DNA of 64,000 nucleotides from Rhodospirillaceae bacterium (GCA_022843945.1 JALHMR010000002.1:72073-136072); one strand, 5' to 3'. Shown: positions 25,179 to 50,908, counted from the stretch's first letter. Notes: generated by a model from the letters alone, not told the origin. Program-made: numbers and translations.

Positions 25179-26045
25179 ATGGAGTATTTCCTGCTTGGCC
25201 TGGTCGGCCTGCTGATCCTGATTGCGCTGTCCGGCGTCAAGATCGTTCCCCAGTCCCATGAATACGTGGTCGAGCAGTTCGGCAAATACACGGTGACCCT
25301 GCGGGCGGGCCTGAACTTCATCGTGCCGATCCTCAACCGGGTGGCTTCCAAGGTCAGCATCCTCGAGCGCCAGCTCGAGCCCCAGGAAATCAGCGTCATC
25401 ACCAAGGACAACGTCGAGATCCACCTGACCACAGCGGTCTTCTTCCGGGTGGTGGATGCGGCAAAGTCGGTCTATCGGATCAACGACATCGACCTGGCGG
25501 TGAAGACCACGGTGACCAGCATCGTGCGCTCGACCGGCGGCCAGATGGAGTTCGACGAGGTCCAGGCCAAGCGCGACTTCATCAACGAGAAGATCAAGGA
25601 CTCGCTGTCGGAGGCCTGCGCGGTGTGGGGCATCGAGATCACCCGCACCGAGGTGCTCGACGTCTCGGTCGACGCCGCGACGCGCACGGCGATGCAGCAG
25701 CAGCTCAATGCCGAGCGCGAGCGCCGGGCCGCGGTGACCAAGGCCGAAGGCGACCGCCAGGCACAGCAGCTCCATGCCGACGCCGAGCTCTACACCGCGC
25801 AGAAGAAGGCCGAGGCGCGGCGCGTGCTGGCCGATGCCGAGGCCTACGCCACGACCCAGGTCGGCGCGGCCATCCAGTCCAACGGCCAGGCGGCCATCGA
25901 CTTCGAGATCATGAAGCAGCAGATCGCCAGCGTTTCCGAGATCGCGCGCTCGCAGAACTCGAAGCTGATCGTCATCCCGACCGATATCACCAAGACGCTG
26001 GGCAGCCTCGCCGCCCTGCTCGAAGGCCTGCGGGCAACGAAATGA
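25179..26045 (+). CDS. SPFH/band-7 (stomatin/prohibitin-like) domain protein
   Basis: N-terminal membrane anchor, then the SPFH domain (IVPQSHEYVVEQFGKY...) and a coiled-coil tail. Confidence 0.85.
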   Translation: MEYFLLGLVGLLILIALSGVKIVPQSHEYVVEQFGKYTVTLRAGLNFIVPILNRVASKVSILERQLEPQEISVITKDNVEIHLTTAVFFRVVDAAKSVYRINDIDLAVKTTVTSIVRSTGGQMEFDEVQAKRDFINEKIKDSLSEACAVWGIEITRTEVLDVSVDAATRTAMQQQLNAERERRAAVTKAEGDRQAQQLHADAELYTAQKKAEARRVLADAEAYATTQVGAAIQSNGQAAIDFEIMKQQIASVSEIARSQNSKLIVIPTDITKTLGSLAALLEGLRATK

Positions 26046-26323
26046 CCGCCGCCCTCGACCTGGTGGCGGAGTATCCGGTCCTCTTCTGGGCGGCGCTCGG
26101 CGTGCTGCTGCTGGTGGCCGAGGTGCTGCTGGCTCCCGGCTTCTTCCTGTCCTTCGCCACGGCGGCCTTCCTGGTGGCGCTGGCCACGGCGCTCGGCCTG
26201 CTGCCGGTCGACTTCCTGTGGAAGGCCTTGATCTTCGCGGTGATCGGCGTGGCCACCATCCCGCTCTTCCGCAGCCTGCTGCGCCGGTATTTCGACCGCA
26301 CGCCGGATATCAATCAATACTAG
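26042..26323 (+). CDS. NfeD-like small membrane protein partnered with SPFH
   Basis: ATGA overlap with the SPFH stop. Two hydrophobic helices in 93 aa, the typical partner of SPFH operons. No OB-fold domain, so this is a short form. Confidence 0.5.
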   Translation: MTAALDLVAEYPVLFWAALGVLLLVAEVLLAPGFFLSFATAAFLVALATALGLLPVDFLWKALIFAVIGVATIPLFRSLLRRYFDRTPDINQY

Positions 26324-26379
26324 GCCCTGCGACGTTCTCTCAATGCACGACGAGAGAGTGAGATTAATTGTGAGACGGA

Positions 26380-27228
26380 ATGACGCTGATTGTCGCTCGA
26401 AAGACTAATGACGCGACATACATTGTCGGAGACACACTTTTTACCGGTGGAAAGGAAAACCTCCGCAAGCCCGACGTTGGTCTAAAAGTTTTTGCGATTG
26501 ATGCTGAAACGATGCTTTCTTACGCCGGTGTAGCACCAGAGACGGCACATTAAATATTCGTCTCGGTTGTCAGCGAGCTAAAACAAGGCTCTGACGTCCT
26601 TACTTTGTTGGATGCCGCTCAACGCAAGCTCGGTGCGCCTGCACTTGATCTTCTAGTCGTTCGTAGAGGCCAGATCACCGTCTTTAAGAATGGTCAGGTC
26701 TCGAAAGATCTGGCCGTCGGGTGGATTGGTGACCACGCGGCGTTCGAGGCATTTCAGGAGGCGATGGAAGGACAAACTGCCGGAGCCTTCTCATTTCATG
26801 CAGCAATGAGCGCAGTTGTTCGGAATCACAAGGTGGCTACAGTTGGAGGGCATGCTGTAACAGCCCGCTCTGGGTCATCCGGGGCCAGCTATGAATGTCT
26901 GATGGCGCTAACTTCTCCTCGCTATGTTCCTAAGCCGGAAGACTGGGAAACGGTTGATTGGGCTGATGCTGCGCGCGGAGGGTATGGCTTTACAACAATC
27001 ACGCCCCCTGAAAAGGGGATTTGCGGCTGGGGAATTTTCTATTTTCAAGCATTTAGGGGCATCTATTTTTCGGTGAATTTAAGAGAGAATAAATTCGAAC
27101 GGCTGACGGCAAGCGCAAGAACTGCCGAACAGTTTTGCGGTGTTTTAGAGCCGGCGTTAGGCTATCGGCCTCTGCACTGCGGGGATCTTTTTGCCGCAAC
27201 GGGCCCCGCAACTACCCCGCTTTCCTGA
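26380..27228 (+). pseudogene. HslV/proteasome-beta-like Ntn-hydrolase gene (Anbu/BPH-like, with a roughly 130-aa C-terminal extension) interrupted by an in-frame TAA at 26551-26553; lies in a low-GC islet
   Basis: A single frame runs 26380-27228. The N-terminus MTLIVARKTNDATYIVGDTLFTGGKEN...KVFAIDAETMLSYAGVAPETAH matches the HslV pattern TTIVSVRRNGHVVIAGDGQ...[22 protein letters not shown], including Thr1, Asp17 and Lys33(+2). After the TAA the frame continues with LAVGWIGDHAAFEAF, which corresponds to the HslV GSGG segment. The track lists only the downstream 207-aa piece (26605-27228). Local GC is visibly about 50% against roughly 68% in the flanks. Confidence 0.5.
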
Positions 27229-27892
27229 ACGTCAGGTTGAAGCGGCAGCGGCCGGTCAGCGGATCGCTGCCCTCGGCCAGCTTGTCGACGCCGTGGAAGG
27301 TGAGCCGCGCCGGGCCGCCCCAGACTGCCACGTCGCCGCTGGCCAAGGGGATGCGCTTCACCTTGTCCTTGCGCGTGGCCCCGCCCCACAGGAATTTCGC
27401 CGGCAGGCCGAGCGAGACCGAGACGATGGGCTGCGTAAAGTCGCGCTCGTTGCGGTCCTGGTGGAGCGTGAGGCGCGCGCCCGGTGTGTAGCGGTTGATC
27501 AGGCAGCCATCGGGCGCGAAACCGGGAAAGCCGGCCGCTTCGGCGGCGCGTGCGGCGAGGGTGCGGAAGGACTCAGGCATCGCCGGCCAGGGCCTGCCGA
27601 TTTCGGGATCGAGAGGGTCGTAGCGATAGCCGCTGCGGTCGGTGACCCAGCCAAGCGCGCCGGCATTGGTCATGGCCACGGACATGGTGTGCCCGCCGGG
27701 CACGATCATGTGGCGGAAGGGCGAGCCGGCGGCGACACCCTGCAGATCGATCACCAGCCGCGGCGTCTCGCTCGCGGCGAAGCCGCGCAGCAGCACGGCA
27801 CCGTCGGCCAGGGTTTCGCGGTCTGGTCTTTCAAACAATTCGTCATGCCGGCGAAAGCCGGCATCCAGGGGCGTGTGCGTGGTGCTTGCCAT
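27212..27892 (-). CDS. alkB: Alpha-ketoglutarate-dependent dioxygenase AlkB (DNA/RNA alkylation repair)
   Basis: Collinear with E. coli AlkB (SPFRHMIVPGGHTMSVAMTNAGALGW, LTLHQDRNE, IVSVSLGLPAKF, RYNLTFR). HxD...H iron-binding triad. The 3' end overlaps the islet pseudogene by 17 bp, convergently. Confidence 0.85.
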   Translation of the reverse strand: MASTTHTPLDAGFRRHDELFERPDRETLADGAVLLRGFAASETPRLVIDLQGVAAGSPFRHMIVPGGHTMSVAMTNAGALGWVTDRSGYRYDPLDPEIGRPWPAMPESFRTLAARAAEAAGFPGFAPDGCLINRYTPGARLTLHQDRNERDFTQPIVSVSLGLPAKFLWGGATRKDKVKRIPLASGDVAVWGGPARLTFHGVDKLAEGSDPLTGRCRFNLTFRKAG

Positions 27893-40082: not shown

Positions 40083-40817
40083 TCATTTCTTGGAAGAGCG
40101 ATAGCCGCGCATGGCGATGTTGGCGTCGCGGCCGGCGATCATCGCCTCGTCGTAAGGCAGCTCCATCACCTTGTAGAACAGCTCCTTGGTGGCCCGCATG
40201 GCGACCGGGTCGATGGAAGCCAGGCGGGTGGCAAGGGCGACGGCCTCGTTGAGCAACCCTTCGTCGGGGACCAGCCGGTTGATCAACCCCAGACTTTGCG
40301 CCTGCTGGGCGGTGAGCGGCTCGCCCAGCGCCACCAGCTCGAAGGCTTTCTTCGGTCCGAGCTGGCGCACCAGGCCGGTCATGACGATGGCGCCGACGAT
40401 GCCGTGCTTGGTCTCGGGATAGCCTAATTTGAGAGTCGGCGAGGCGACGACGAGGTCGCTGGCCAGGCACAGGCCGGCGCCGCCGCCGACGGCGTGGCCG
40501 CGGGCCGCCGCGACGATCGGCTTGCCGAGCGTGGGAAAGGCGACGTGCAAGCGCCGAGAAAGATCGGCGCGCTGGAACACGGCCTCCGGATTGTCGCTGG
40601 TCAGGGTGGCGAACTCGGAAGTGTCGGCGCCGGCGCAGAAGGCGCGGCCGGCGCCCGTCACCACGACGGCGCGCACGCTGTCGTCGTCGCGCGCGGCCTC
40701 CAGCCCTTTGAGCAGCTCGGCGGTCAGCTCGCTGTTGAGGGCGTTGAGCTTGTCCGGACGGTTCATCGTCAGGATGCGGACCGCTTCACGATTTTCGACC
40801 AGGAGCACGTCAGGCAT
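40083..40817 (-). CDS. Enoyl-CoA hydratase/isomerase family protein
   Basis: RAFCAGADTSEF and GHAVGGGAGLCLASD crotonase motifs. Start at ATG 40817, with an 8-bp overlap with the upstream gene; the track's TTG start is 40841. Confidence 0.8.
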   Translation of the reverse strand: MPDVLLVENREAVRILTMNRPDKLNALNSELTAELLKGLEAARDDDSVRAVVVTGAGRAFCAGADTSEFATLTSDNPEAVFQRADLSRRLHVAFPTLGKPIVAAARGHAVGGGAGLCLASDLVVASPTLKLGYPETKHGIVGAIVMTGLVRQLGPKKAFELVALGEPLTAQQAQSLGLINRLVPDEGLLNEAVALATRLASIDPVAMRATKELFYKVMELPYDEAMIAGRDANIAMRGYRSSKK

Positions 40818-41793
40818 GGGCGGTTTCCGCGGCAAGGCCAAGACCGGTGCGCGTCACTTTGCCGAACAACTGGCGGCCGAGAGTTTCCTCGCACAGCCGG
40901 GCGACGTCGATCAGGCGGTCGAGATCGAGGCCGGTATCCACACCCATGGCCTCGAACATCGCCACCAGGTCCTCGGTGCAGACATTGCCGGTGTAGCCGC
41001 CGCCGTATTTCACCTGGGCCGGATGGCCGCCCACGCCGCCGAACGATGAGTCGAAATGCCGTACGCCGGCATCGAGCGCAGCGACGCAATTGGCGAGGCC
41101 GGTGCCGCGGGTATCGTGGAGATGGGCGATCGGCGTGACCTCGCGGAGATCGGCCACGACCCGGCCGAACAGCGCGGCGATGGAACGCGGATCGCCATGG
41201 CCGGTCGTGTCGCCCAGCGCCACGTGGGCCACGCCAAGCTCGGCGAAGCGGCGGACGTCCGCCATCACCACGCCGGGGTCGACGGCACCCTCGAACGGGC
41301 AGCCGAAGGCGACGGAAACCACACCGATCAGCCGGAACTTGCCGCTGGCGGCACGCGCCATCTCCGTGATCCGCGCCCATTGCTCGGCGCGCGAGGATTT
41401 GAGATTACGTTGACTATGAGACTCTGTGGCCGAGACCAGCAGGCTGATCTCATTGACGCCGATACCGGCGTCGCGATCGGCCAGGGCGCGCTCGACGGCT
41501 TTCAGGTTGGCGCAGGTCGCCTTGTAATAGACGCCGGGCCGGCGCTTGAGGACGGCCAGCACCTCAGAAGCATCAGAAAACTGCGGCACCACCTTGGGGT
41601 TCGAGTACGAGGTCGCCTCGACCCGGCTGAAGCCCAGCTCGGCGAAGCGCTCGACCAGCGCGACCTTTTGCGCGGTCGGCACGAAACCGGGCTCGTGCTG
41701 CAGCCCGTCGCGGGCAAAGCATTCGCAGATGACGACGCGTTCGCTCAAGAAAGTCTCTTCATGAAAGGGACGCTGCAACGGTGTTCTTATCAT
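40810..41793 (-). CDS. HMG-CoA-lyase-like (DRE-TIM metallolyase) protein
   Basis: ECFARDGLQ N-terminal motif and the HxH metal site (AHLHDTRG) typical of hydroxymethylglutaryl-CoA lyase and related acyl-CoA lyases. Confidence 0.8.
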   Translation of the reverse strand: MIRTPLQRPFHEETFLSERVVICECFARDGLQHEPGFVPTAQKVALVERFAELGFSRVEATSYSNPKVVPQFSDASEVLAVLKRRPGVYYKATCANLKAVERALADRDAGIGVNEISLLVSATESHSQRNLKSSRAEQWARITEMARAASGKFRLIGVVSVAFGCPFEGAVDPGVVMADVRRFAELGVAHVALGDTTGHGDPRSIAALFGRVVADLREVTPIAHLHDTRGTGLANCVAALDAGVRHFDSSFGGVGGHPAQVKYGGGYTGNVCTEDLVAMFEAMGVDTGLDLDRLIDVARLCEETLGRQLFGKVTRTGLGLAAETAHA

Positions 41794-41858
41794 ATGAGTT
41801 CATACATTTACGGCCGTCAATCACCATGTCATAGAAGCAGAGCGCAGAGGAGGTGGAT

Positions 41859-42269
41859 ATGAAGCTCAAAGATTTCATTCGAGAAAGCTTGGTTGAGATC
41901 GCCTTCGGAGTTCACCAGGCAAAGGTTGCAGCGAAGGATCTGGTGGCAATATCACCAGGCCATCTTAATGGTCAGATTGTTCAGGAAAAAATCTACGTGG
42001 ATTTCGACGTTGCAGTAACTGTCAACGAAGTTCGAGAGACAGATAAAGAAGGGAAGCTGGGGATCCAGGCTCAAATTGAGGTGCTGGGCAACAAGTTAGG
42101 CGGCGAGTTGGGTGGCGGTGGGGCCGTTAGCCAGTCATCAAGCACTCAGACGGCAAGCCGAGTAGTCTTCAAGGTGCCGGTCTATCTCAATTCTCACTTC
42201 CGCAACGACGCTGGTTTCGACAAGGAGGTGAAATTTATGGAGGAGCTTTCGAATCGGACCAACAAGTGA
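41859..42269 (+). CDS. Trypco2-like (trypsin-co-occurring domain 2) protein, in a low-GC islet
   Basis: ATG 5 nt after AGAGGAGG (the track ORF begins at the upstream GTG 41853). The pattern helix...IYVDFDVAVTVNEV...GKLGIQAQIEVLGNKLGGELGGGG..SQSSSTQTASRVVFKVPVYL matches the trypco2 pattern as recalled (E-L-E-F-Q-V ... K-F-W-V-L-E-L-G-G-K-G..SQ..TQ..K.SL.P). GC is about 50%. My own base numbering here differs from the track by 1 nt; the track frame was used. Confidence 0.45.
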   Translation: MKLKDFIRESLVEIAFGVHQAKVAAKDLVAISPGHLNGQIVQEKIYVDFDVAVTVNEVRETDKEGKLGIQAQIEVLGNKLGGELGGGGAVSQSSSTQTASRVVFKVPVYLNSHFRNDAGFDKEVKFMEELSNRTNK

Positions 42270-42282
42270 CTGGAAGAACAAA

Positions 42283-42903
42283 ATGCCAAATGGTTCGGCG
42301 CAGCAAAAGTACTTAGCGTTGATGGCGATGATACGGCGGCGCTTTGACATCATCCGCGCGTTGAACGATTCAAACTCTAATTTCGTTGCCGCTGAGACGG
42401 CGGCGTTTCATGGCCGGAAAATCGTAGAAGGAATCGCATTTGGATGCTTGGTGGCTTTGGAGAATGGAATTCGCCATGTTCCTCGCGATGCAAAGGGCCA
42501 ATGGAAAGCGGATGCAATATTCAAATCTCTGCTTGCTAAGGGGCTTCCCGTTTTCCCCTCACCCAGCATCATCCGGGCTGCCACTACTGATGAAAAAGTA
42601 GCTCACGCAAGCAACATTGTAATCGAAGGCCAACCTGATCGGCGTTTAACTCACGAACAAATACAAGGGATGTACGAACGGCTGCATCGATGGGCTCACG
42701 AATTGAATCCCTATGTTGAGGAGGGGCACGCAGAGTTTTTTGATAAGCACACGGAGCAGTTGAGGGATGATTTGATGCGTTTAGAGCGGTTTATCGAACG
42801 GCATACTATATCCATCCGCGGCGCGATGTTTTTCAGTGTTTTAAGAGATGCGGCTGACGGATCAGTGAAAGTGATACCGCTTACTAAGGTTGCAGACACC
42901 TAA
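42283..42903 (+). CDS. Hypothetical alpha-helical protein, possibly HEPN-like; second gene of the low-GC islet
   Basis: 206-aa ORF 13 bp after the trypco2-like gene. Predicted to be all-alpha. Candidate Rx4-6H motif (ERLHRWAHEL). No other family recognised. Its stop lies 1 bp before the acyl-CoA synthetase ATG. Confidence 0.4.
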   Translation: MPNGSAQQKYLALMAMIRRRFDIIRALNDSNSNFVAAETAAFHGRKIVEGIAFGCLVALENGIRHVPRDAKGQWKADAIFKSLLAKGLPVFPSPSIIRAATTDEKVAHASNIVIEGQPDRRLTHEQIQGMYERLHRWAHELNPYVEEGHAEFFDKHTEQLRDDLMRLERFIERHTISIRGAMFFSVLRDAADGSVKVIPLTKVADT

Positions 42904-42904
42904 G

Positions 42905-44527
42905 ATGCGACGCGGTTTTCTTCGCGAACAGCTTGAGCCCTGGATGCTCCGAACCTTCGGTTCGGTGCTGGCCGACGTTGCGGTGCGCCAGCCGGAGGCC
43001 GAGGCCCTGGTCGTCGGCGCGCGGCGCCTGACCTATGCCGGGCTCCAGGAGGCGGCGCGCCGTGTCGGGTCGGGGCTTCTCCGCCTGGGTATCCGCCGGG
43101 GCGACCATGTCGCGGTCTGCATGGAGAACGGCCTGGAATGGGTCCAGGTGTTCTACGGCTGCGCCCTGATCGGCGCGGTGGTGGTGCCGGTCAATACGCG
43201 CTTCAAGGAGGCGGAGCTGCGCTACTGCCTGGCGCAGTCTGACGCCAAGGCGCTGGTCGTCGTCGACCGCTTCCTGAAGATCGACTTCATCGCCATGCTG
43301 CGCGCCATCGAGCCGGCGATCGATGAGGGGTTGCCCGGCTCCACGCTACCGCAGTTGCGGCAGGTGATCGTGCGCGGCACGGACGTGCCCCCAGGAGCCT
43401 TGCCGTTCTCTGTCCTGGAAGAGCCGGCCTCGGCGTTGGAAACCGCCGTGCAGCCGGCCGACGTGGTGCTGATCCAGTACACCTCGGGCACCACCGCCGA
43501 GCCCAAGGGCGTGATGCTCAGCCACGACAGCATGCTGCGCAACGCCGCCAACGCCGCGGCACGTATCGGCATCCGGCCCGACGACCGCTATTTCAGCCCG
43601 CGGCCGTTCTATCACGTGGCCGGCACCACGCTCGCCATCCTGGCGGCGCTCAGCGCCGGCGCCTGCCTCGTGACCCTGCCGATGTTCGACACCGACGAGG
43701 CGCTTGCTTTGATGTCGCGCGAGCGCTGCACCCTGATCTCGGGTAACGACACGATCTTCCTGATGGTGATGAACCATCCGCGGCGGGCCGAGTTTCCGCT
43801 GTCCTTGCGCGGCGGCTGGGCGGCGGCCGGGATCGAGGTCATGCAGCAGGCCCACGACCGGCTCGGCCTCAAGGACCTGGTCTACGCCTACGGCCTGTCC
43901 GAGGCCTCGCCCAACGTCATCATGACCGGATACGACGAGCCCCTGGCCGATCGCCTGGCCGGCATCACCCGCACGCATAAGGGGCTCGAGATCCGCATCT
44001 GCGACGTGGAGAGCGGCGCCGTGTTGCCGGCCGGCACGCCGGGCGAGATCCAGGTGCGCGGCTGGAGCGTGATGAAGGGCTATTACAACAAGCCGGCTGA
44101 AACGGCGAAAGCCCTGCTGCCCGAGGGCTGGCTGCGCACCGGCGACCTGGGCGTGCTGGACGGACAGGGGCGGCTGCGCTTCATCGGCCGAGCCAAGGAT
44201 ATCTTCCGCGTCGGCGGCGAGAACGTGGCGCCGGCCGATGTCGAGGAGGTGCTGCACGGCCATCCCAAGGTCAAACAGGCCCAGGTGATCGGCGTGCCTG
44301 ACCAGCGGCTGGGCGAGGTGGCGGCCGCCTACGTGATCCTCAACGAGGGGCAGAGCGCCCGGCCGGCGGAGCTGATCGAGTGGTGCCGCGCGCGCTGCGC
44401 CAATTTCAAGGTGCCGCGCTACCTGCGGGTGATCGAGACCTTCGACGGCATCGGCATGACCGGCAGCAGCAAGGTGCAAAAACACAAGTTGCGCGAGCAG
44501 GCGCTGAAGGACTTTAATCTGGGGTAA
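42905..44527 (+). CDS. AMP-dependent acyl-CoA synthetase/ligase
   Basis: AMP-binding signature (IQYTSGTTAEPKGVMLSH), the YGLSE motif, and a C-terminal ...GKVQKHKLRE. Start is ambiguous: ATG 42905 sits immediately after the islet, and ATG 42944 is the alternative. Confidence 0.85.
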   Translation: MRRGFLREQLEPWMLRTFGSVLADVAVRQPEAEALVVGARRLTYAGLQEAARRVGSGLLRLGIRRGDHVAVCMENGLEWVQVFYGCALIGAVVVPVNTRFKEAELRYCLAQSDAKALVVVDRFLKIDFIAMLRAIEPAIDEGLPGSTLPQLRQVIVRGTDVPPGALPFSVLEEPASALETAVQPADVVLIQYTSGTTAEPKGVMLSHDSMLRNAANAAARIGIRPDDRYFSPRPFYHVAGTTLAILAALSAGACLVTLPMFDTDEALALMSRERCTLISGNDTIFLMVMNHPRRAEFPLSLRGGWAAAGIEVMQQAHDRLGLKDLVYAYGLSEASPNVIMTGYDEPLADRLAGITRTHKGLEIRICDVESGAVLPAGTPGEIQVRGWSVMKGYYNKPAETAKALLPEGWLRTGDLGVLDGQGRLRFIGRAKDIFRVGGENVAPADVEEVLHGHPKVKQAQVIGVPDQRLGEVAAAYVILNEGQSARPAELIEWCRARCANFKVPRYLRVIETFDGIGMTGSSKVQKHKLREQALKDFNLG

Positions 44528-44674: not shown

Positions 44675-45457
44675 ATGTCCAACGTCGTCAAGAAGCCGGA
44701 TACCCGCAAAGCCCTGCGCGAGCGCGTCAGCGCGGCGGAGTGGCAGATGCGTGTCGATCTCGCGGCCTGCTACCGCCTGATCGCCCATTTCCGCTGGACG
44801 GACATGATCTACACCCACATCTCGGCGCGCGTGCCGGGCGAGCCGGATCATTTCCTGATCAACGCCTACGGCCTGATGTTCGACGAGATGAAGGCCTCGA
44901 ACCTGGTCAAGGTCGACCACGAGGGAAACCTGCTCGACGACCCCACGGGCCTCGGCATCAATCCCGCCGGCTTCACCATCCACAGCGCCGTCCACATGGC
45001 GCGACCGGATGTCGACTGCGTGCTGCACACGCACACCTCGGCCGGCATGGCGATCGCCAGTCAGAAGCAGGGACTGTTGATGCTGAACCAGCACGCCATG
45101 CGCTTCCACAACCGCATCGGCTACCACGACTACGAAGGTGTGGCGCTCAACCTCGACGAGCGCGGCCGGCTGCAGAAGAATCTCGGCGACAAGTTCGTGC
45201 TGATCCTGCGCAACCACGGCCTGCTGACCTGCGGGCGCACGGTGCGCGAGGCCTTCGACCTGATGTACTACCTGCAGCGCGCCTGCGAGGCGCAGGTCGT
45301 GGCGCAGTCGACCGGCGCCGAGCTCATTCTCGGCGACGATACGGTTGCCGAGCACGTCGCCCGCCAGTTCGAGCGCCCGGGCCGGCCCTCGGCGCAGAAG
45401 GACTGGCCGGCGCTCACCCGGATGCTCGACCGCATCGATCCGTCGTACAAGGACTGA
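44675..45457 (+). CDS. Class II aldolase/adducin-family protein
   Basis: Metal-binding His cluster (VLHTHTSAG) and VLILRNHGLLTCG. Confidence 0.85.
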   Translation: MSNVVKKPDTRKALRERVSAAEWQMRVDLAACYRLIAHFRWTDMIYTHISARVPGEPDHFLINAYGLMFDEMKASNLVKVDHEGNLLDDPTGLGINPAGFTIHSAVHMARPDVDCVLHTHTSAGMAIASQKQGLLMLNQHAMRFHNRIGYHDYEGVALNLDERGRLQKNLGDKFVLILRNHGLLTCGRTVREAFDLMYYLQRACEAQVVAQSTGAELILGDDTVAEHVARQFERPGRPSAQKDWPALTRMLDRIDPSYKD

Positions 45458-45475
45458 AAACGCGCGCCGCTGAAA

Positions 45476-46822
45476 CTAGCGTGGTGGCGGCTTCAAGTCG
45501 TCCGGGCGGTCAGGCGTAGACGGCTCGATACGCCCGACGCTAGGTCTCCTGCTACACAGGGTCGTCGGCTCGTTGATGTTCGTCGGATCGATCAGGTCGA
45601 CGATCATCTGCCGAATGTCATCGGAGACGCGGGTCGGGGCGAGCACCGCCGCCCGCCTCAGGAAACGCCGGATACCGTAGTCCTTGTCGCCGACCTCCCA
45701 GTCGGTTGGGAAGTCGCTGCCCGGCCGTCCGCGAAACAGCTTCAAAATCTCCCAGATGGTGAAAGCAGGCCATTTCGGACACACGATATCCGGCCGCAAA
45801 AAATCCCGCTCGATGATTACATTGGGGGACACGCCGTCACTGGCCGCACCGAACTGGTAGCGCTCAAGATTCGGCGTGACGAGGCAACGCAGCGCTGAGC
45901 GAACCCCGTTCTGGCTCCGCTCGGAATCGGCCAGCGAGGTCAACGGTGGCGAGACACTTTGGGTGATGAAGGCCCGTCGAAACGGCAAAGGTCTCTCGCG
46001 GCCGAAAAGCTCATGCAACAGCTCTTCGGCGGCGAACTCGCTGAACGCCTCGTGGAAGGCGATATTCGGCCACTCTTGCCGGCCGGCCGTGCCTTCGAAG
46101 CCAAAACGGCGGCTGCAGACGCCCTTGTGCCAAGCGGTCACACCCTTGTTGTGGTCGTAGTTCCAGATATGCATCATCTCGTGCAGCAGCGTGATCAGGA
46201 GCTGGGGGTCGGTGTCGGTGAGGTCGTTGTCGAGGCCGACTCTGCGGTTGGCGATGTGGGTGGCGTATGAAGCGTTGAACACGGTCGGGGCCGGCCATTG
46301 GATCCGGATGTGGCCGCCGAAGGCTAGCCAGGGGTCGGCGCGCCGCAGCCGCCGGATGAGGGTCATGGCGGCGTACCACAGAAGCGCGCGTGTATTGTTT
46401 CGGCGGCTCGCCAGCGCCTCGGTTGCCGAATCTGGATGGAAGTAGAGATCGCCCAGAGAGCGCGTCGTCTCGGCCGACCGTTCCTCATCCTCGTACACCG
46501 AAAAACGTACGACGTCGCTGTCTTTCTTGTGGGCAGTTATGGAGAGATCGTCACTGACAAAGGCGATCTCGACACTAAGCCGTCGGGCCCGGTCGGACAT
46601 GTCCTTTTCAATAAGGAAGTTGCCCTGCTCGTCCGCGTGGCTGCGGGCAAGAACGTTATCGCCATTGCAAAGCAGGACTGTGATGCCGATGAGCGGCTTT
46701 GGCCGCACCGCCTCGAAGTGGGAGCTGGCTGGCGCTCCCGCAATCACCGGAGGCGGGGGAGGTATGGGGTTCGTCAGGTCGTCGCGCGCGATCAAGCGGC
46801 CGGAAATACGCCATGCAACCAT
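45476..46822 (-). CDS. Hypothetical protein with a zincin HExxH motif (putative metallopeptidase)
   Basis: LLHEMMHIWNYDH gives HExxHxxNxxH, a metzincin-like spacing with Asn where Gly is usual. N-terminal Pro-rich linker. GC somewhat lower than the host. No family assigned. Confidence 0.5.
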   Translation of the reverse strand: MVAWRISGRLIARDDLTNPIPPPPPVIAGAPASSHFEAVRPKPLIGITVLLCNGDNVLARSHADEQGNFLIEKDMSDRARRLSVEIAFVSDDLSITAHKKDSDVVRFSVYEDEERSAETTRSLGDLYFHPDSATEALASRRNNTRALLWYAAMTLIRRLRRADPWLAFGGHIRIQWPAPTVFNASYATHIANRRVGLDNDLTDTDPQLLITLLHEMMHIWNYDHNKGVTAWHKGVCSRRFGFEGTAGRQEWPNIAFHEAFSEFAAEELLHELFGRERPLPFRRAFITQSVSPPLTSLADSERSQNGVRSALRCLVTPNLERYQFGAASDGVSPNVIIERDFLRPDIVCPKWPAFTIWEILKLFRGRPGSDFPTDWEVGDKDYGIRRFLRRAAVLAPTRVSDDIRQMIVDLIDPTNINEPTTLCSRRPSVGRIEPSTPDRPDDLKPPPR

Positions 46823-46850
46823 GTCGTCCCCCTAGCGATTGGCGCGGCGA

Positions 46851-48023
<1,173 letters not shown>

Positions 48024-48087: not shown

Positions 48088-48900
48088 ATGACCGCGATTG
48101 CCGCGCCGACGATCCGCAAACCCGCCGTGGCCGGGCTGTTCTACCCCGGCGACGCGGCTACGCTCGCGGCCGAGGTCGATGCGCTGCTGGCCGCCGTGCC
48201 GGCAGCGCCGGGGCCGGTGCCCAAGGCGCTTATTGTTCCTCATGCGGGGTATCAATACTCGGGCCCGATCGCGGCGAGCGCCTATGCCCGGTTGCGGCCG
48301 GCGCGCCAGACGATCCGCCGGGTGGTGTTGCTCGGCCCGGCCCACCGCGAATGGTTCCCGGGGCTGGCGCTGCCCTCGGTCACCCAGTTCCGCACGCCGC
48401 TGGGCGACGTGCTGCTCGACGGCGAGCGGGCGGCGCATCTCGCCGCGCTGCCGGGCGTGGTGATGCGCGACGACGCGCACCGGCTGGAGCACAGTCTCGA
48501 AGTCCACCTGCCGTTCCTGCAGCGCCTGCTGGCCCAGTTCACGCTGCTGCCGATCGCCGTCAGCGAGGCCACGCCGGGACAGGTGGCGCGCGCGCTGGCC
48601 GCGGTATGGGGCGGCCCGGAGACCGTAATCGTGATCTCCTCCGACCTCAGCCATTATCACGACTACGCCACCGCGCAGGGCATCGACGCGCGTACGGCCG
48701 AAGCCATCGAGCGGCTGGAGGGCGGCGAGCTCGATGGCGAGCGCGCCTGCGGCTACATCCCGGTCCAGGGCCTGCTGCTCGAGGCCGCCTCGCGTGGGCT
48801 CCGCGTGGCGCGGACGGACCTGCGCAACTCCGGCGACACCGCGGGTCCGCGCGGCGAGGTCGTCGGCTACGGCGCCTGGACCTTTGCCGAGCGGGGATGA
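48088..48900 (+). CDS. MEMO1-family protein (AmmeMemoRadiSam system protein B)
   Basis: LIVPHAGYQYSG and SSDLSHYH are MEMO-family motifs. Start at Met 48088 with a GGGAGG RBS. Divergent from the radical SAM gene. Confidence 0.75.
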   Translation: MTAIAAPTIRKPAVAGLFYPGDAATLAAEVDALLAAVPAAPGPVPKALIVPHAGYQYSGPIAASAYARLRPARQTIRRVVLLGPAHREWFPGLALPSVTQFRTPLGDVLLDGERAAHLAALPGVVMRDDAHRLEHSLEVHLPFLQRLLAQFTLLPIAVSEATPGQVARALAAVWGGPETVIVISSDLSHYHDYATAQGIDARTAEAIERLEGGELDGERACGYIPVQGLLLEAASRGLRVARTDLRNSGDTAGPRGEVVGYGAWTFAERG

Positions 48901-48913
48901 CTCCCAGGCCGAG

Positions 48914-50908
48914 GTGATCGCCTTCCTGGCGGCGGCCGACACCCACGGCGCTGGCGCGGTCGAGCGCCACGAGACGCATGGCGCGCTGGTCTTCCTGGCG
49001 GGCGACCGGGCTTACAAGCTCAAGCGCGCGGTCAAGTTTCCCTACATGGATTTCTCGACGCGCGAGCGGCGGCGCGACGCCTGCGAGAAGGAGCTGCAGG
49101 TCAACCGGCGCACCGCACCCGAGCTCTATCTCGAAGTCAGCCCCGTCGTCCGCCAGGCCGGCGGACCCTTGCAGCTCGGCGGCGAAGGCGAGGTGCTCGA
49201 CTGGGTCGTGGTCATGCGCCGCTTCGCGACCGAGTCGCTGCTGGAGCGCCGGCGCCAGGCCGGGAAGCTCGACGCGCCGCTGCTGCGCCGGCTGGCCGAG
49301 ACCATCGCCGCCTTCCACGGCAGCATCGAGGCCGTGCCCGGCTTCGGTGCCGCCAACGGCCTCGCCGATGTCGTCACCAAAAACCTGACCGTCATCAAGG
49401 GCATGACTGGCCGCGTCTTCGAAGCCGAGCGGGTCGAGCGCCTGGCCCGCCAGGTCTGGCATCTGCTGGACCGTCTCGGTCCGATGCTCGACGCCCGCCG
49501 CGATGCCGGATTGGTGCGCCGCTGTCATGGCGACCTCCACCTCAACAACATCTGCGTGCTCGAAGGCCGACCGGTGCTCTTCGATGCTATCGAGTTCAAC
49601 GACGACTTCGCCTGTATCGACGTGTTCTACGACCTCGCCTTCCTGCTGATGGACCTCGATCGGCACGGCCTCCGCGACTTCGCCAACCTGGTGCTCAACC
49701 GCTATCTCGAGATCCGCCAGGACTATGCCGGCCTCGCGACCCTGCCGCTGTTCCTGTCAACCCGCGCCGCGATCCGCGCCCATGTCACCGTGTCGACCAC
49801 TGTGGCCAAGGGCCAGCCTGACGATCCCGCGCGCCTGGCCGAGGCGCGCCGGTTGCTCGACCTGGCCATCGCCTATAGCGAGCCGCCGCCGCCCCGCCTG
49901 GTCGCCATCGGCGGCCTGTCGGGGACCGGCAAATCGAGCGTGGCCCGGGCGTTGGCCCCCTCGGGCGGACCGTCGCCGGGGGCGGTGGTTCTGCGCAGCG
50001 ACGTCATCCGCAAGCGGTTGATGAATGTGCCGGAGACGACGCGCCTGCCGGAATCGGCGTACGAGCCAGGCGTCACCGTGCGGGTCTTCGCCAGCCTGGC
50101 GGAGACGGCCGGCGTGGCGCTGACCGCCGGCCACGCCGTCGTCGCCGATGCGGTCTACGGCGATCCCGGCCAGCGCGCGGCCATCGCCGCGGTCGCCCGG
50201 GCGGCCGGGGTGCCGTTCGCCGGCTTCTGGCTCGAGGCGCCGCGCGACGTGCTCGAGGCCCGCGTCGCCGACCGCCAGGGCGATGCCTCCGATGCCACGG
50301 TCGAGGTGCTGCGCAGGCAGGTCCAGGGAATTACCCCGCCGGCCGACTGGCTGCGCATCGACGCGATCCGTCCGGTCGCCGACATCGCGCTGGAGCTGAA
50401 CCGGCTCCTGGACGAATCACGCATCGAGGATCTGCCGGGTCTGAATGCGGTGGTGCTGCGTCCGGTACGGCCGGGCGACGAGCCGGCGTTGCAGCGCTTC
50501 TTCGATCGCATGACGGCCGAGGACATCCGCCTGCGCTTCTTCGCCCCCTTGCGCGAGCTGCCGGAGCAGCACCTGGCCCGGCTGGTAGATCTCGACCGCG
50601 AGCGGGAGCTGGCCTGCATCCTCGAAAGCCCGGATGGCATCCTGGGCATCGCCCGTATCGCCGCCGATGCGCAAGGCCGGCGCGCCGAGTTCGCCGTCAC
50701 CGTGCGCAGCGACCTGCAGGGGCGCGGGCTCGGCACGCACCTCCTGCGCCGGCTGGTGACGCATGCCCGCGAACGCGGCCTCGAGGAGATCTACGGTGAC
50801 ATCCTGGCCGAGAACGCCACCATGATCGCCATCTGCCGCGACCTGGGTTTCGAGATCCAGCCGCTGCCCGAGACCAAGGACATCGTCCGGGCGACGCGCC
50901 GGCTTTAG
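48914..50908 (+). CDS. Multidomain protein: phosphotransferase (APH/Kdo-kinase-like) + P-loop kinase + GNAT acetyltransferase
   Basis: HGDLHLNN catalytic-loop motif, P-loop GLSGTGKSS, and a C-terminal GNAT (QGRGLGTHLL). Start uncertain: GTG 48914 is the first in-frame start after the MEMO stop, while the track ORF starts at 48734 inside the MEMO gene. Confidence 0.6.
   Translation: MIAFLAAADTHGAGAVERHETHGALVFLAGDRAYKLKRAVKFPYMDFSTRERRRDACEKELQVNRRTAPELYLEVSPVVRQAGGPLQLGGEGEVLDWVVVMRRFATESLLERRRQAGKLDAPLLRRLAETIAAFHGSIEAVPGFGAANGLADVVTKNLTVIKGMTGRVFEAERVERLARQVWHLLDRLGPMLDARRDAGLVRRCHGDLHLNNICVLEGRPVLFDAIEFNDDFACIDVFYDLAFLLMDLDRHGLRDFANLVLNRYLEIRQDYAGLATLPLFLSTRAAIRAHVTVSTTVAKGQPDDPARLAEARRLLDLAIAYSEPPPPRLVAIGGLSGTGKSSVARALAPSGGPSPGAVVLRSDVIRKRLMNVPETTRLPESAYEPGVTVRVFASLAETAGVALTAGHAVVADAVYGDPGQRAAIAAVARAAGVPFAGFWLEAPRDVLEARVADRQGDASDATVEVLRRQVQGITPPADWLRIDAIRPVADIALELNRLLDESRIEDLPGLNAVVLRPVRPGDEPALQRFFDRMTAEDIRLRFFAPLRELPEQHLARLVDLDRERELACILESPDGILGIARIAADAQGRRAEFAVTVRSDLQGRGLGTHLLRRLVTHARERGLEEIYGDILAENATMIAICRDLGFEIQPLPETKDIVRATRRL

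Follow-up and report, generated by a model that had tools for sequence, protein, structure and literature searches.

What purpose is served by a small, compositionally foreign pair of genes set between the start codons of two catabolic genes? The question is raised by a 64,000-nucleotide (nt) stretch of DNA from a Rhodospirillaceae bacterium (GCA_022843945.1 JALHMR010000002.1:72073-136072; this whole stretch is called the window below), in which two short genes of low guanine-plus-cytosine content (GC), here called gene 1 and gene 2, lie between divergent genes for an HMGL-like lyase and an acyl-CoA synthetase. Here we report that this islet was acquired laterally, as a cassette of two accessory genes that displaced a promoter region, and that each of the two gene families circulates mostly alone, as single-gene cargo. 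As to function, we assign a probability of roughly 0.5 to the reading that the islet is acquired conflict-type cargo, in which a solo HEPN-fold putative ribonuclease (RNase), gene 2, travels with a protease-less, Pepco-like putative pore former, gene 1; an anti-phage role is plausible but unproven.

The islet as delimited in a first-pass annotation of the window (41794-42904) has a GC of 0.494 and is the lowest-GC stretch in the 64 kb, over which 1.1-kb windows average 0.666 with a standard deviation of 0.033 (z = -5.2), so the low-GC character noted there stands. GC at third codon positions (GC3) is 0.57 in gene 1 and 0.51 in gene 2, against 0.80-0.92 in the neighbouring genes for the lyase, enoyl-CoA hydratase (ECH), acyl-CoA synthetase and aldolase. 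Gene 1 (41859-42269, + strand) encodes a small protein of 136 amino acids (aa) that its family profile places in a divergent branch of the Trypco2/Pepco superfamily. Its start is set at the ATG at 41859 rather than at an alternative GTG at 41853, which would give 138 aa, because a GGAGG box (Shine-Dalgarno sequence AGAGGAGG, 41846-41853) stands 5 nt upstream of the ATG and every homologue begins with MKL or MRL; the leader that precedes it (41749-41858, +) has a GC of only 0.46. Gene 2 (42283-42903, +) encodes 206 aa of an unannotated HEPN-fold family, and ends in a TAA at 42901-42903, followed by a single G and then the ATG at 42905 of the synthetase gene (42905-44527, +; AMP-binding, 540 aa), exactly the 1-bp spacing described earlier. 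The nearly equal GC of the two genes (0.499 and 0.494) and the gap of 13 nt between them, on the same strand, suggest that they arrived together.

Comparison with five syntenic relatives (L038, L087, L088, L089 and L090; 78-90% nucleotide identity over shared genes) supports the earlier proposal of acquisition, as gene 1 and gene 2 are absent from all five. There, the starts of the lyase (-) and synthetase (+) genes lie 64-87 bp apart. The synthetase has 540 aa in L087-L090 and is split in L038 by an apparent frameshift; since the ATG at 42905 is matched in the alignment by the start codon of L038 and opens a gene of 540 aa in the window as well, it is taken as the native start. Lyase lengths of 312-319 aa in the relatives point to the TTG at 41746-41748 as the probable native start of the window's lyase gene (40810-41748, -; 312 aa), the first of the divergent operon, whose reading frame now runs on to an ATG at 41791-41793 within the foreign DNA. 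Nucleotide homology to L038, L087 and L089 ends at 41742-41743 and restarts at 42913-42932 by blastn; overall, homology is lost at 41743, or at the protein level at the TTG at 41746-41748, and is regained at 42905-42932. Judged by this comparison, the foreign segment is slightly larger than first described, at about 1.16 kb (41744-42904, no strand assigned), a span marked by the GC contrast, by the breaks in blastn homology and by the missing native intergenic block.

That block, of about 58 bp, is near-identical in L087 (3910-3996), L089 (5295-5358) and L038 (2066-2146), where it lies directly 5' of the synthetase ATG; it includes the sequence CTTGACCGTAGGATAGACGTTGGATTTTTGCCATAGGTTTCATAGTCTTGGAC and is probably the shared divergent promoter/operator of these relatives. 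A profile of the relatives' spacer found no match within 41600-43100, even at E<=1000 with filters off, and only noise elsewhere in the window, and the leader of gene 1 has no similarity to the native intergenic region. A candidate remnant of that region at 41780-41811 was rejected, being significant neither by a shuffle test nor by nhmmer. Because the conserved block of the relatives leaves no trace in the window, we conclude that the native divergent promoter/operator region has been lost, which bears out the first-pass view that the promoter and ribosome-binding-site region was replaced. The leader of gene 1 must now also act as the upstream region of the divergent lyase operon; no terminator was found between gene 2 and the synthetase gene, and for that reason the synthetase operon is probably transcribed through the islet. 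No match to a sigma-70 consensus was found in or at the edges of the islet, the leader of gene 1 included, and an Rfam search returned nothing relevant.

As had been remarked before, no integrase lies in the islet or at its edges, and direct or inverted repeats flanking it do not rise above chance 10-15-mers. A transposon or target-site duplication was considered and rejected, as terminal repeats were not found, and so was an integron gene cassette, there being no attC or other suitable inverted repeat and gaps of just 13 nt and 1 nt. Since the source contig is of whole-genome-shotgun or metagenome type and its composition breaks abruptly at both ends of the islet, the low-GC block might instead be an assembly chimera or a contaminant in a metagenome-derived contig, an explanation to which we give very little credence. 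An independent contig of the Joint Genome Institute (JGI), from a metagenome of another sample (L037), spans the junction of gene 2 and the synthetase gene with 100% identity over 1824 bp, which makes misassembly unlikely at least at the right-hand junction, and both junctions fall exactly at gene starts, with intact open reading frames (ORFs) on either side.

Gene 2 belongs to a well-conserved family, which comprises more than 210 clusters at 90% identity, all of whose members are annotated as hypothetical and carry no Pfam domain, and relatives 50-60% identical occur across Planctomycetota, Acidobacteriota, Bacteroidota, Deinococcota and several proteobacterial classes. An AlphaFold (AF2) model of high confidence (pLDDT 90) predicts a four-helix bundle (H1, 6-29; H2, 34-59; H3, 124-139; H4, 149-172) with a 60-residue insert (60-123) between H2 and H3 and a C-terminal beta-hairpin. 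As defined in the literature (PMC3710099), HEPN domains close helix 3 with an Rx4-6H motif, have a conserved acidic residue within helix 2 and often carry an insert that separates helices 2 and 3. In gene 2, R133-x5-H139 stands at the end of helix 3, followed by E140, N142, P143 and Y144 (motif segment 42679-42714, +), a position that matches this definition; among 120 homologues, H139 is kept in 119 and N142 in 118, and P143 and Y144 are invariant. Four polar residues of helix 2, E38, R45, K46 and E49 (42394-42429, +), are invariant in all 120 and in both remote homologues, which makes E38 and E49 candidates for the acidic residue of HEPN helix 2, and R45 and K46 candidates for an alternative basic residue. 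The core shared with the remote homologues consists of R20, E38, R45, K46, E49, Y131, H139, N142-Y144 and H174, and a 41-sequence family alignment (A2) holds 27 invariant residues. From the fold, the position of the motif, the helix-2 glutamates and the H2-H3 insert, all of which fit the published definition, we infer a HEPN-fold family with a partly atypical active site, predicted by inference only to act as an RNase.

The four-helix bundle and the large H2-H3 insert are shared with the MNT-associated HEPN toxins (PDB 5yep, 8xdj and 7ae2) and with the AF0298-type protein (2hsb), and HEPN toxins head the Foldseek matches of the model, although neither PDB (best E = 0.22) nor BFVD yielded a significant one. 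Unlike these proteins, gene 2 carries an extra beta-sheet subdomain, has the invariant Arg45/Lys46 of helix 2 beside an incompletely conserved motif arginine, and lacks an MNT or other antitoxin partner, being mostly a solo gene. A cysteine or serine protease triad (C55/S, H174, D192) was considered and rejected: the sequence around C55, AF[GAS][CS]L, is of the hydrophobic, small-residue kind expected where helices pack, which makes a structural role more likely than a catalytic one.

The genomic settings of gene 2 relatives were surveyed in 30 species-representative genomes (L001-L030), and clustering of these loci revealed no conserved neighbour other than integrases, found in six of them. 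The homologues usually have a lower GC than their flanks (0.43 vs 0.65 in Pseudomonas kuykendallii; 0.51 vs 0.74 in Aquariibacter), and their neighbours include a DNA methylase fragment, a HEC-04 candidate-defence ATPase and integrases by profile match, together with HicA/HicB-like, BrnT-like and nucleotidyltransferase-like proteins identified by visual inspection of their sequences. A plasmid homologue in Halomonas adjoins genes annotated in its record as cytosine methyltransferase, Toprim and ISL3, and on one viral contig (L077) the homologue lies, as a moron on the opposite strand, between tape-measure and tail genes.

The most telling setting is found in phages related to P2. Gene 2 matches phrog_13799, the sole family returned by PHROGs and one with no function assigned there, at E=2e-15, and the founding type of that family is a homologue 29% identical to gene 2 (BLASTP E=1e-16). 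In the Yersinia P2-like phage vB_YpM_50 the phrog_13799 homologue is the main cargo between the genes for the replication endonuclease gpA and the portal gpQ, and among complete E. coli genomes, 28 of 5426 have it as gpA-gpQ cargo too. The stretch from gpA to gpQ is known in P2 as an anti-phage hotspot, home to old, tin and other genes (Rousset et al. 2022, PMC9122126); in the hotspot catalogue the protein, WP_021519103.1, appears merely as 'hypothetical' and is neither discussed nor tested there (PMC9122126). Its location provides the strongest argument, albeit an indirect one, for a role of gene 2 in defence or exclusion. The hotspot protein has the core residues in common with gene 2; it differs in belonging to a distant branch, in which C55 is replaced by serine and R133 and H135 are lost, and the copy in the window differs from hotspot cargo in being chromosomal and outside any prophage.

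Two of the host loci deserve separate mention. In Aquariibacter albus (L015, 8701-10158) the gene for the HEC-04 ATPase (PADLOC E=1.5e-46; AAA_15/AAA_21) lies directly 3' of the gene 2 homologue, within one low-GC islet (0.51-0.55 vs 0.74). In P. kuykendallii (L007, 8678-9256) the gene 2 homologue is followed directly by a 192-aa ORF with a GC of 0.43 and no Pfam or PADLOC match, in which a HEPN-like '...THKLTKL' stretch can be recognised by eye, which makes it a possible second gene of HEPN type within that islet.

Gene 1 has just 13 close homologues among 5.8 billion proteins. A profile of its family (A1), searched against 1.84 billion cluster representatives, recovered 2372 proteins at E<=1e-3, all of them small (about 100-150 aa), with remote relatives at E<=1e-10. 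Among 95 remote relatives, 16 match the Trypco2 model PF19631 (length 78, gathering score 24.2 bits) at E<=0.01 and no other family recurs; one of them, P0349, is the sole relative above the gathering score, at 24.9 bits. When ten remote relatives were tested singly, eight matched Trypco2, which was the top-scoring family for seven, and the matches covered positions 1-75 of the 78 in the model. As homology runs through intermediate sequences only, gene 1 is best described as a divergent branch of the Trypco2 superfamily and not as a Pfam-defined member.

Trypco1 and Trypco2 owe their definition to their position beside trypsin-like peptidases in conflict systems (PMC7159879). These proteins, since renamed Pepco, were recently shown to stand ready as beta-barrels of 9-10 subunits, with an amphipathic helix at the base (Evans et al. 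2025, bioRxiv 10.1101/2025.11.14.688446), which turn into lethal pores once an adjacent protease cuts off the charged C-terminal tail; SsPepco forms a barrel of 9-10 subunits resistant to sodium dodecyl sulfate (SDS), and precise C-terminal cleavage frees its toxicity (bioRxiv 10.1101/2025.11.14.688446). Gene 1 is similar in size (136 aa vs about 117 aa) and in predicted layout, having an N-terminal amphipathic helix (2-24), three amphipathic beta-strands with a Gly-rich loop (45-110) and a charged tail (111-136). Hydrophobic moments are 0.38 for the helix and 0.49-0.57 for the strands, the 26-residue tail is 38% charged (vs 40% in Pepco), and the predicted elements are a helix at 3-24, strands at 45-61, 67-76 and 95-108, and a tail helix. 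It differs from Pepco in its longer Gly-rich loop and in its helical tail.

In agreement with the first-pass annotation, no trypsin-like protease stands beside gene 1, whose neighbours in the window are genes for the lyase, ECH, a CoA-transferase, the acyl-CoA synthetase and an aldolase. A 448-aa ORF with an HExxH motif (45476-46822) was tried as the missing protease and rejected, having a GC3 of 0.78 and a diverged counterpart in L087 and L088, both of which are without the islet. Nor does a protease recur across about 48 loci of the gene 1 family, where, unlike in known Pepco/Trypco2 systems, no adjoining serine or cysteine protease, STAND NTPase or other sensor is found, and about 45 loci compared for a conserved partner revealed none. 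A possible exception is formed by three contigs (L044, L047 and L048), in which a secreted Peptidase_C13-like gene, with a signal peptide, lies about 370 bp downstream. Family members are typically single lower-GC genes amid unrelated neighbours; one adjoins a phage integrase, one adjoins CcdA and one is on a predicted viral contig. In the three contigs just named (L044, 3995-5777), the family member, 41-44% identical to gene 1, begins 4 nt past the sdhA stop inside a succinate dehydrogenase operon, in the order sdhA, gene 1-family gene, a ParD-like ORF on the other strand, the signal-peptide Peptidase_C13-like protein and sdhB.

Under the reading that we favour, gene 2 would be a stand-alone HEPN-fold enzyme, most likely a metal-independent endoribonuclease, whose putative catalytic centre would combine the invariant His139, with which helix 3 ends, with the helix-2 residues Glu38/Glu49 and Arg45/Lys46 and with Asn142/Tyr144. 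As an abortive-infection or exclusion factor, it would cut RNA upon sensing a phage or other invader, and its regulatory or sensor part would most likely consist of the 60-residue insert together with the C-terminal beta-hairpin. Gene 1 may form an oligomeric barrel, built from its amphipathic beta-strands and resting on the membrane by its N-terminal amphipathic helix, and its charged C-terminal tail may keep the protein harmless until it is cut off; for want of a neighbouring protease gene, activation would depend on a protease from elsewhere, of host or phage, or on some other form of release. The synthetase operon would be read through from the cassette, which has no terminator and ends 1 nt before the ATG, and the divergent lyase operon would have lost its native control region too.

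A number of results weigh against this reading. The first-pass annotation had named a missing trypco2 profile hit as counting against its assignment of gene 1, and none of the 13 close family members, gene 1 included, matches PF19631, even at E<=10, so that the link to Trypco2 is only transitive; its suggestion of a trypco2-like gene survives as a superfamily relationship, not as a direct match. The correspondence with Pepco elements is a resemblance drawn from a poor model (monomer pLDDT 55), the gene 1 family profile picked up only noise among the sequences of solved structures, and no protease adjoins the gene. For gene 2, the HEPN-like fold proposed earlier was recovered, and the possible Rx4-6H motif noted there falls in the expected place, but the motif arginine is present in just 93 of 120 homologues (78%) and is replaced by glutamate or lysine in the P2-phage and Halomonas plasmid homologues. 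No HEPN family in Pfam or NCBIfam matches gene 2 at E<=1, the A2 profile gives only noise against PDB sequences at E<=10, and four-helix bundles easily match one another by fold. Neither gene 1, gene 2 nor the P2 homologue matches any model in Pfam or NCBIfam, and PADLOC-DB v2.0.0, to which the suspicion of a defence module had pointed, has no match for gene 1, gene 2, the P2 homologue, the L077 homologue or the gene 1 relative in L005. Both families also have many members in ordinary housekeeping surroundings, and a solo HEPN RNase without an antitoxin would need a mechanism of self-control. At the level of superfamily and fold, the pattern recognition of the first-pass annotation was nevertheless largely right.

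The two genes might also work as one system, with the HEPN-like protein as sensor or activator in place of the protease, or as co-effector, of a Pepco-like membrane-killing effector, or with gene 1 as an antitoxin-like partner of a HEPN toxin; we consider this doubtful, even though their strand, 13-nt spacing and equal GC suggest a single acquisition. The same gene order recurs in a Nitrotoga metagenome-assembled genome (L005), where the stop of a gene-1-like protein 29% identical to gene 1 lies 1 nt from the start of gene 2, and as proteins of the gene 1 superfamily make up only about 1e-6 of protein clusters, two adjacencies among about 39 gene 2 loci far exceed what random placement would give. 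Against cooperation, a relative of gene 2 is found at none of the roughly 48 other gene-1-family loci, and of the roughly 38 gene-2-family loci outside the window only L005 has a gene-1-like ORF: none was found at the other 29 genome loci, on the two viral contigs or on the P0015 contig, and no neighbour of this kind is annotated at the phage and plasmid loci. In all, about 37 loci are without one. The closest homologues of gene 1 and gene 2 (65% and 61% identity) are themselves unpaired, and as small accessory islets are the preferred setting of both families, an occasional adjacency could arise where insertion sites are shared. The combination is at most facultative, and the dedicated two-gene module envisaged earlier is not borne out, the pair being confined to the window and L005. 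An obligate toxin-antitoxin or sensor-effector pair is not supported: a type II toxin-antitoxin pair, of HEPN-MNT-like or other kind, would require obligate co-occurrence, and this fails.

Somewhat less probable still, in our estimate, is cargo with no part in defence, in which gene 2 would be an inactive, HEPN-like regulator that binds RNA or nucleotides, or a phage moron with some other role, and gene 1 a small structural or stress protein, or in which both would be near-neutral hitch-hikers that rewired two catabolic operons. The failure to match defence models and the unconserved motif arginine are consistent with such a role, inactive HEPN domains that serve as binding modules being known (PMC3710099), as are the insertion's removal of the conserved promoter/operator block and the several homologues that lie amid housekeeping genes, such as those placed between sdhA and sdhB or next to an ABC transporter. 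On the other side, the 27 invariant residues of A2, with His, Glu, Arg and Lys clustered at the HEPN active-site position, argue for an enzyme; the usual signature of conflict genes is seen in the combination of 50-60% identity across phyla with low-GC islets, location in a phage hotspot, and toxin-antitoxin and restriction-modification neighbours; and Pepco relatives are toxins by experiment (bioRxiv 10.1101/2025.11.14.688446). The islet does resemble phage morons and other small genomic islets, in that one or two genes of deviant GC, with no mobility gene among them, stand between conserved genes, and the gene 2 family itself includes a classic moron, which lies on the opposite strand within a tail module. 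It differs from them in lying outside a prophage, flush with two start codons, in place of a conserved regulatory region.

Conflict-type cargo, with gene 2 as putative RNase and gene 1 as putative pore former, is the reading that we retain. A bolder version is speculative and in our view unlikely to be correct as a whole: that a HEPN-fold protein, and not a protease, licenses or cooperates with a Pepco-type pore in a facultative abortive-infection system, and that the gene 2 family, WP_021519103.1 included, is a new single-gene HEPN defence family. If it were true, there would be a protease-independent way to control Pepco effectors. The gene 2 family is well conserved across phyla and covered by no protein-family or defence database, and since one branch of it sits in the gpA-gpQ interval of P2, the best-validated phage defence hotspot in E. 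coli, its function is directly testable in a standard host. Gene 1 indicates that Pepco/Trypco2-like proteins also circulate without a linked protease, which prompts one to ask what keeps such copies in check. The locus itself is a clean natural case of a tiny islet swapped in between two start codons for a conserved divergent promoter/operator, and has probably placed a catabolic operon under foreign transcriptional control.

The catabolic locus varies elsewhere as well. L087 and L088 (5956-6781) have a cold-shock protein gene and a 213-aa ORF between the synthetase and aldolase genes, with a GC of 0.53-0.56 against 0.66-0.68, in an interval that holds no insert in the window; from this and the other inserts, small low-GC islets appear at three intergenic sites of the locus across the relatives. 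At 45456-46869 the window carries the 448-aa ORF mentioned above (45476-46822, -), with an HEMMH motif, only weak SprT-like and YbeY matches and a GC3 of 0.78; the site is an insertion relative to L038 and L089/L090, which have 20-23 bp there, and L087/L088 hold a diverged 460-aa counterpart, so this may be a fast-evolving zincin-like accessory gene independent of the islet. The second-lowest GC in the window (about 0.54) is found at 26000-27300, where a 207-aa ORF (26605-27228, +) lies between an SPFH/NfeD pair and an AlkB-like gene. Finally, 48734-50908 encodes a 724-aa ORF with a terminal GNAT acetyltransferase domain, where L087 and L089 have just an acetyltransferase of 163-166 aa, a difference of about 1.5 kb of extra sequence in the window.

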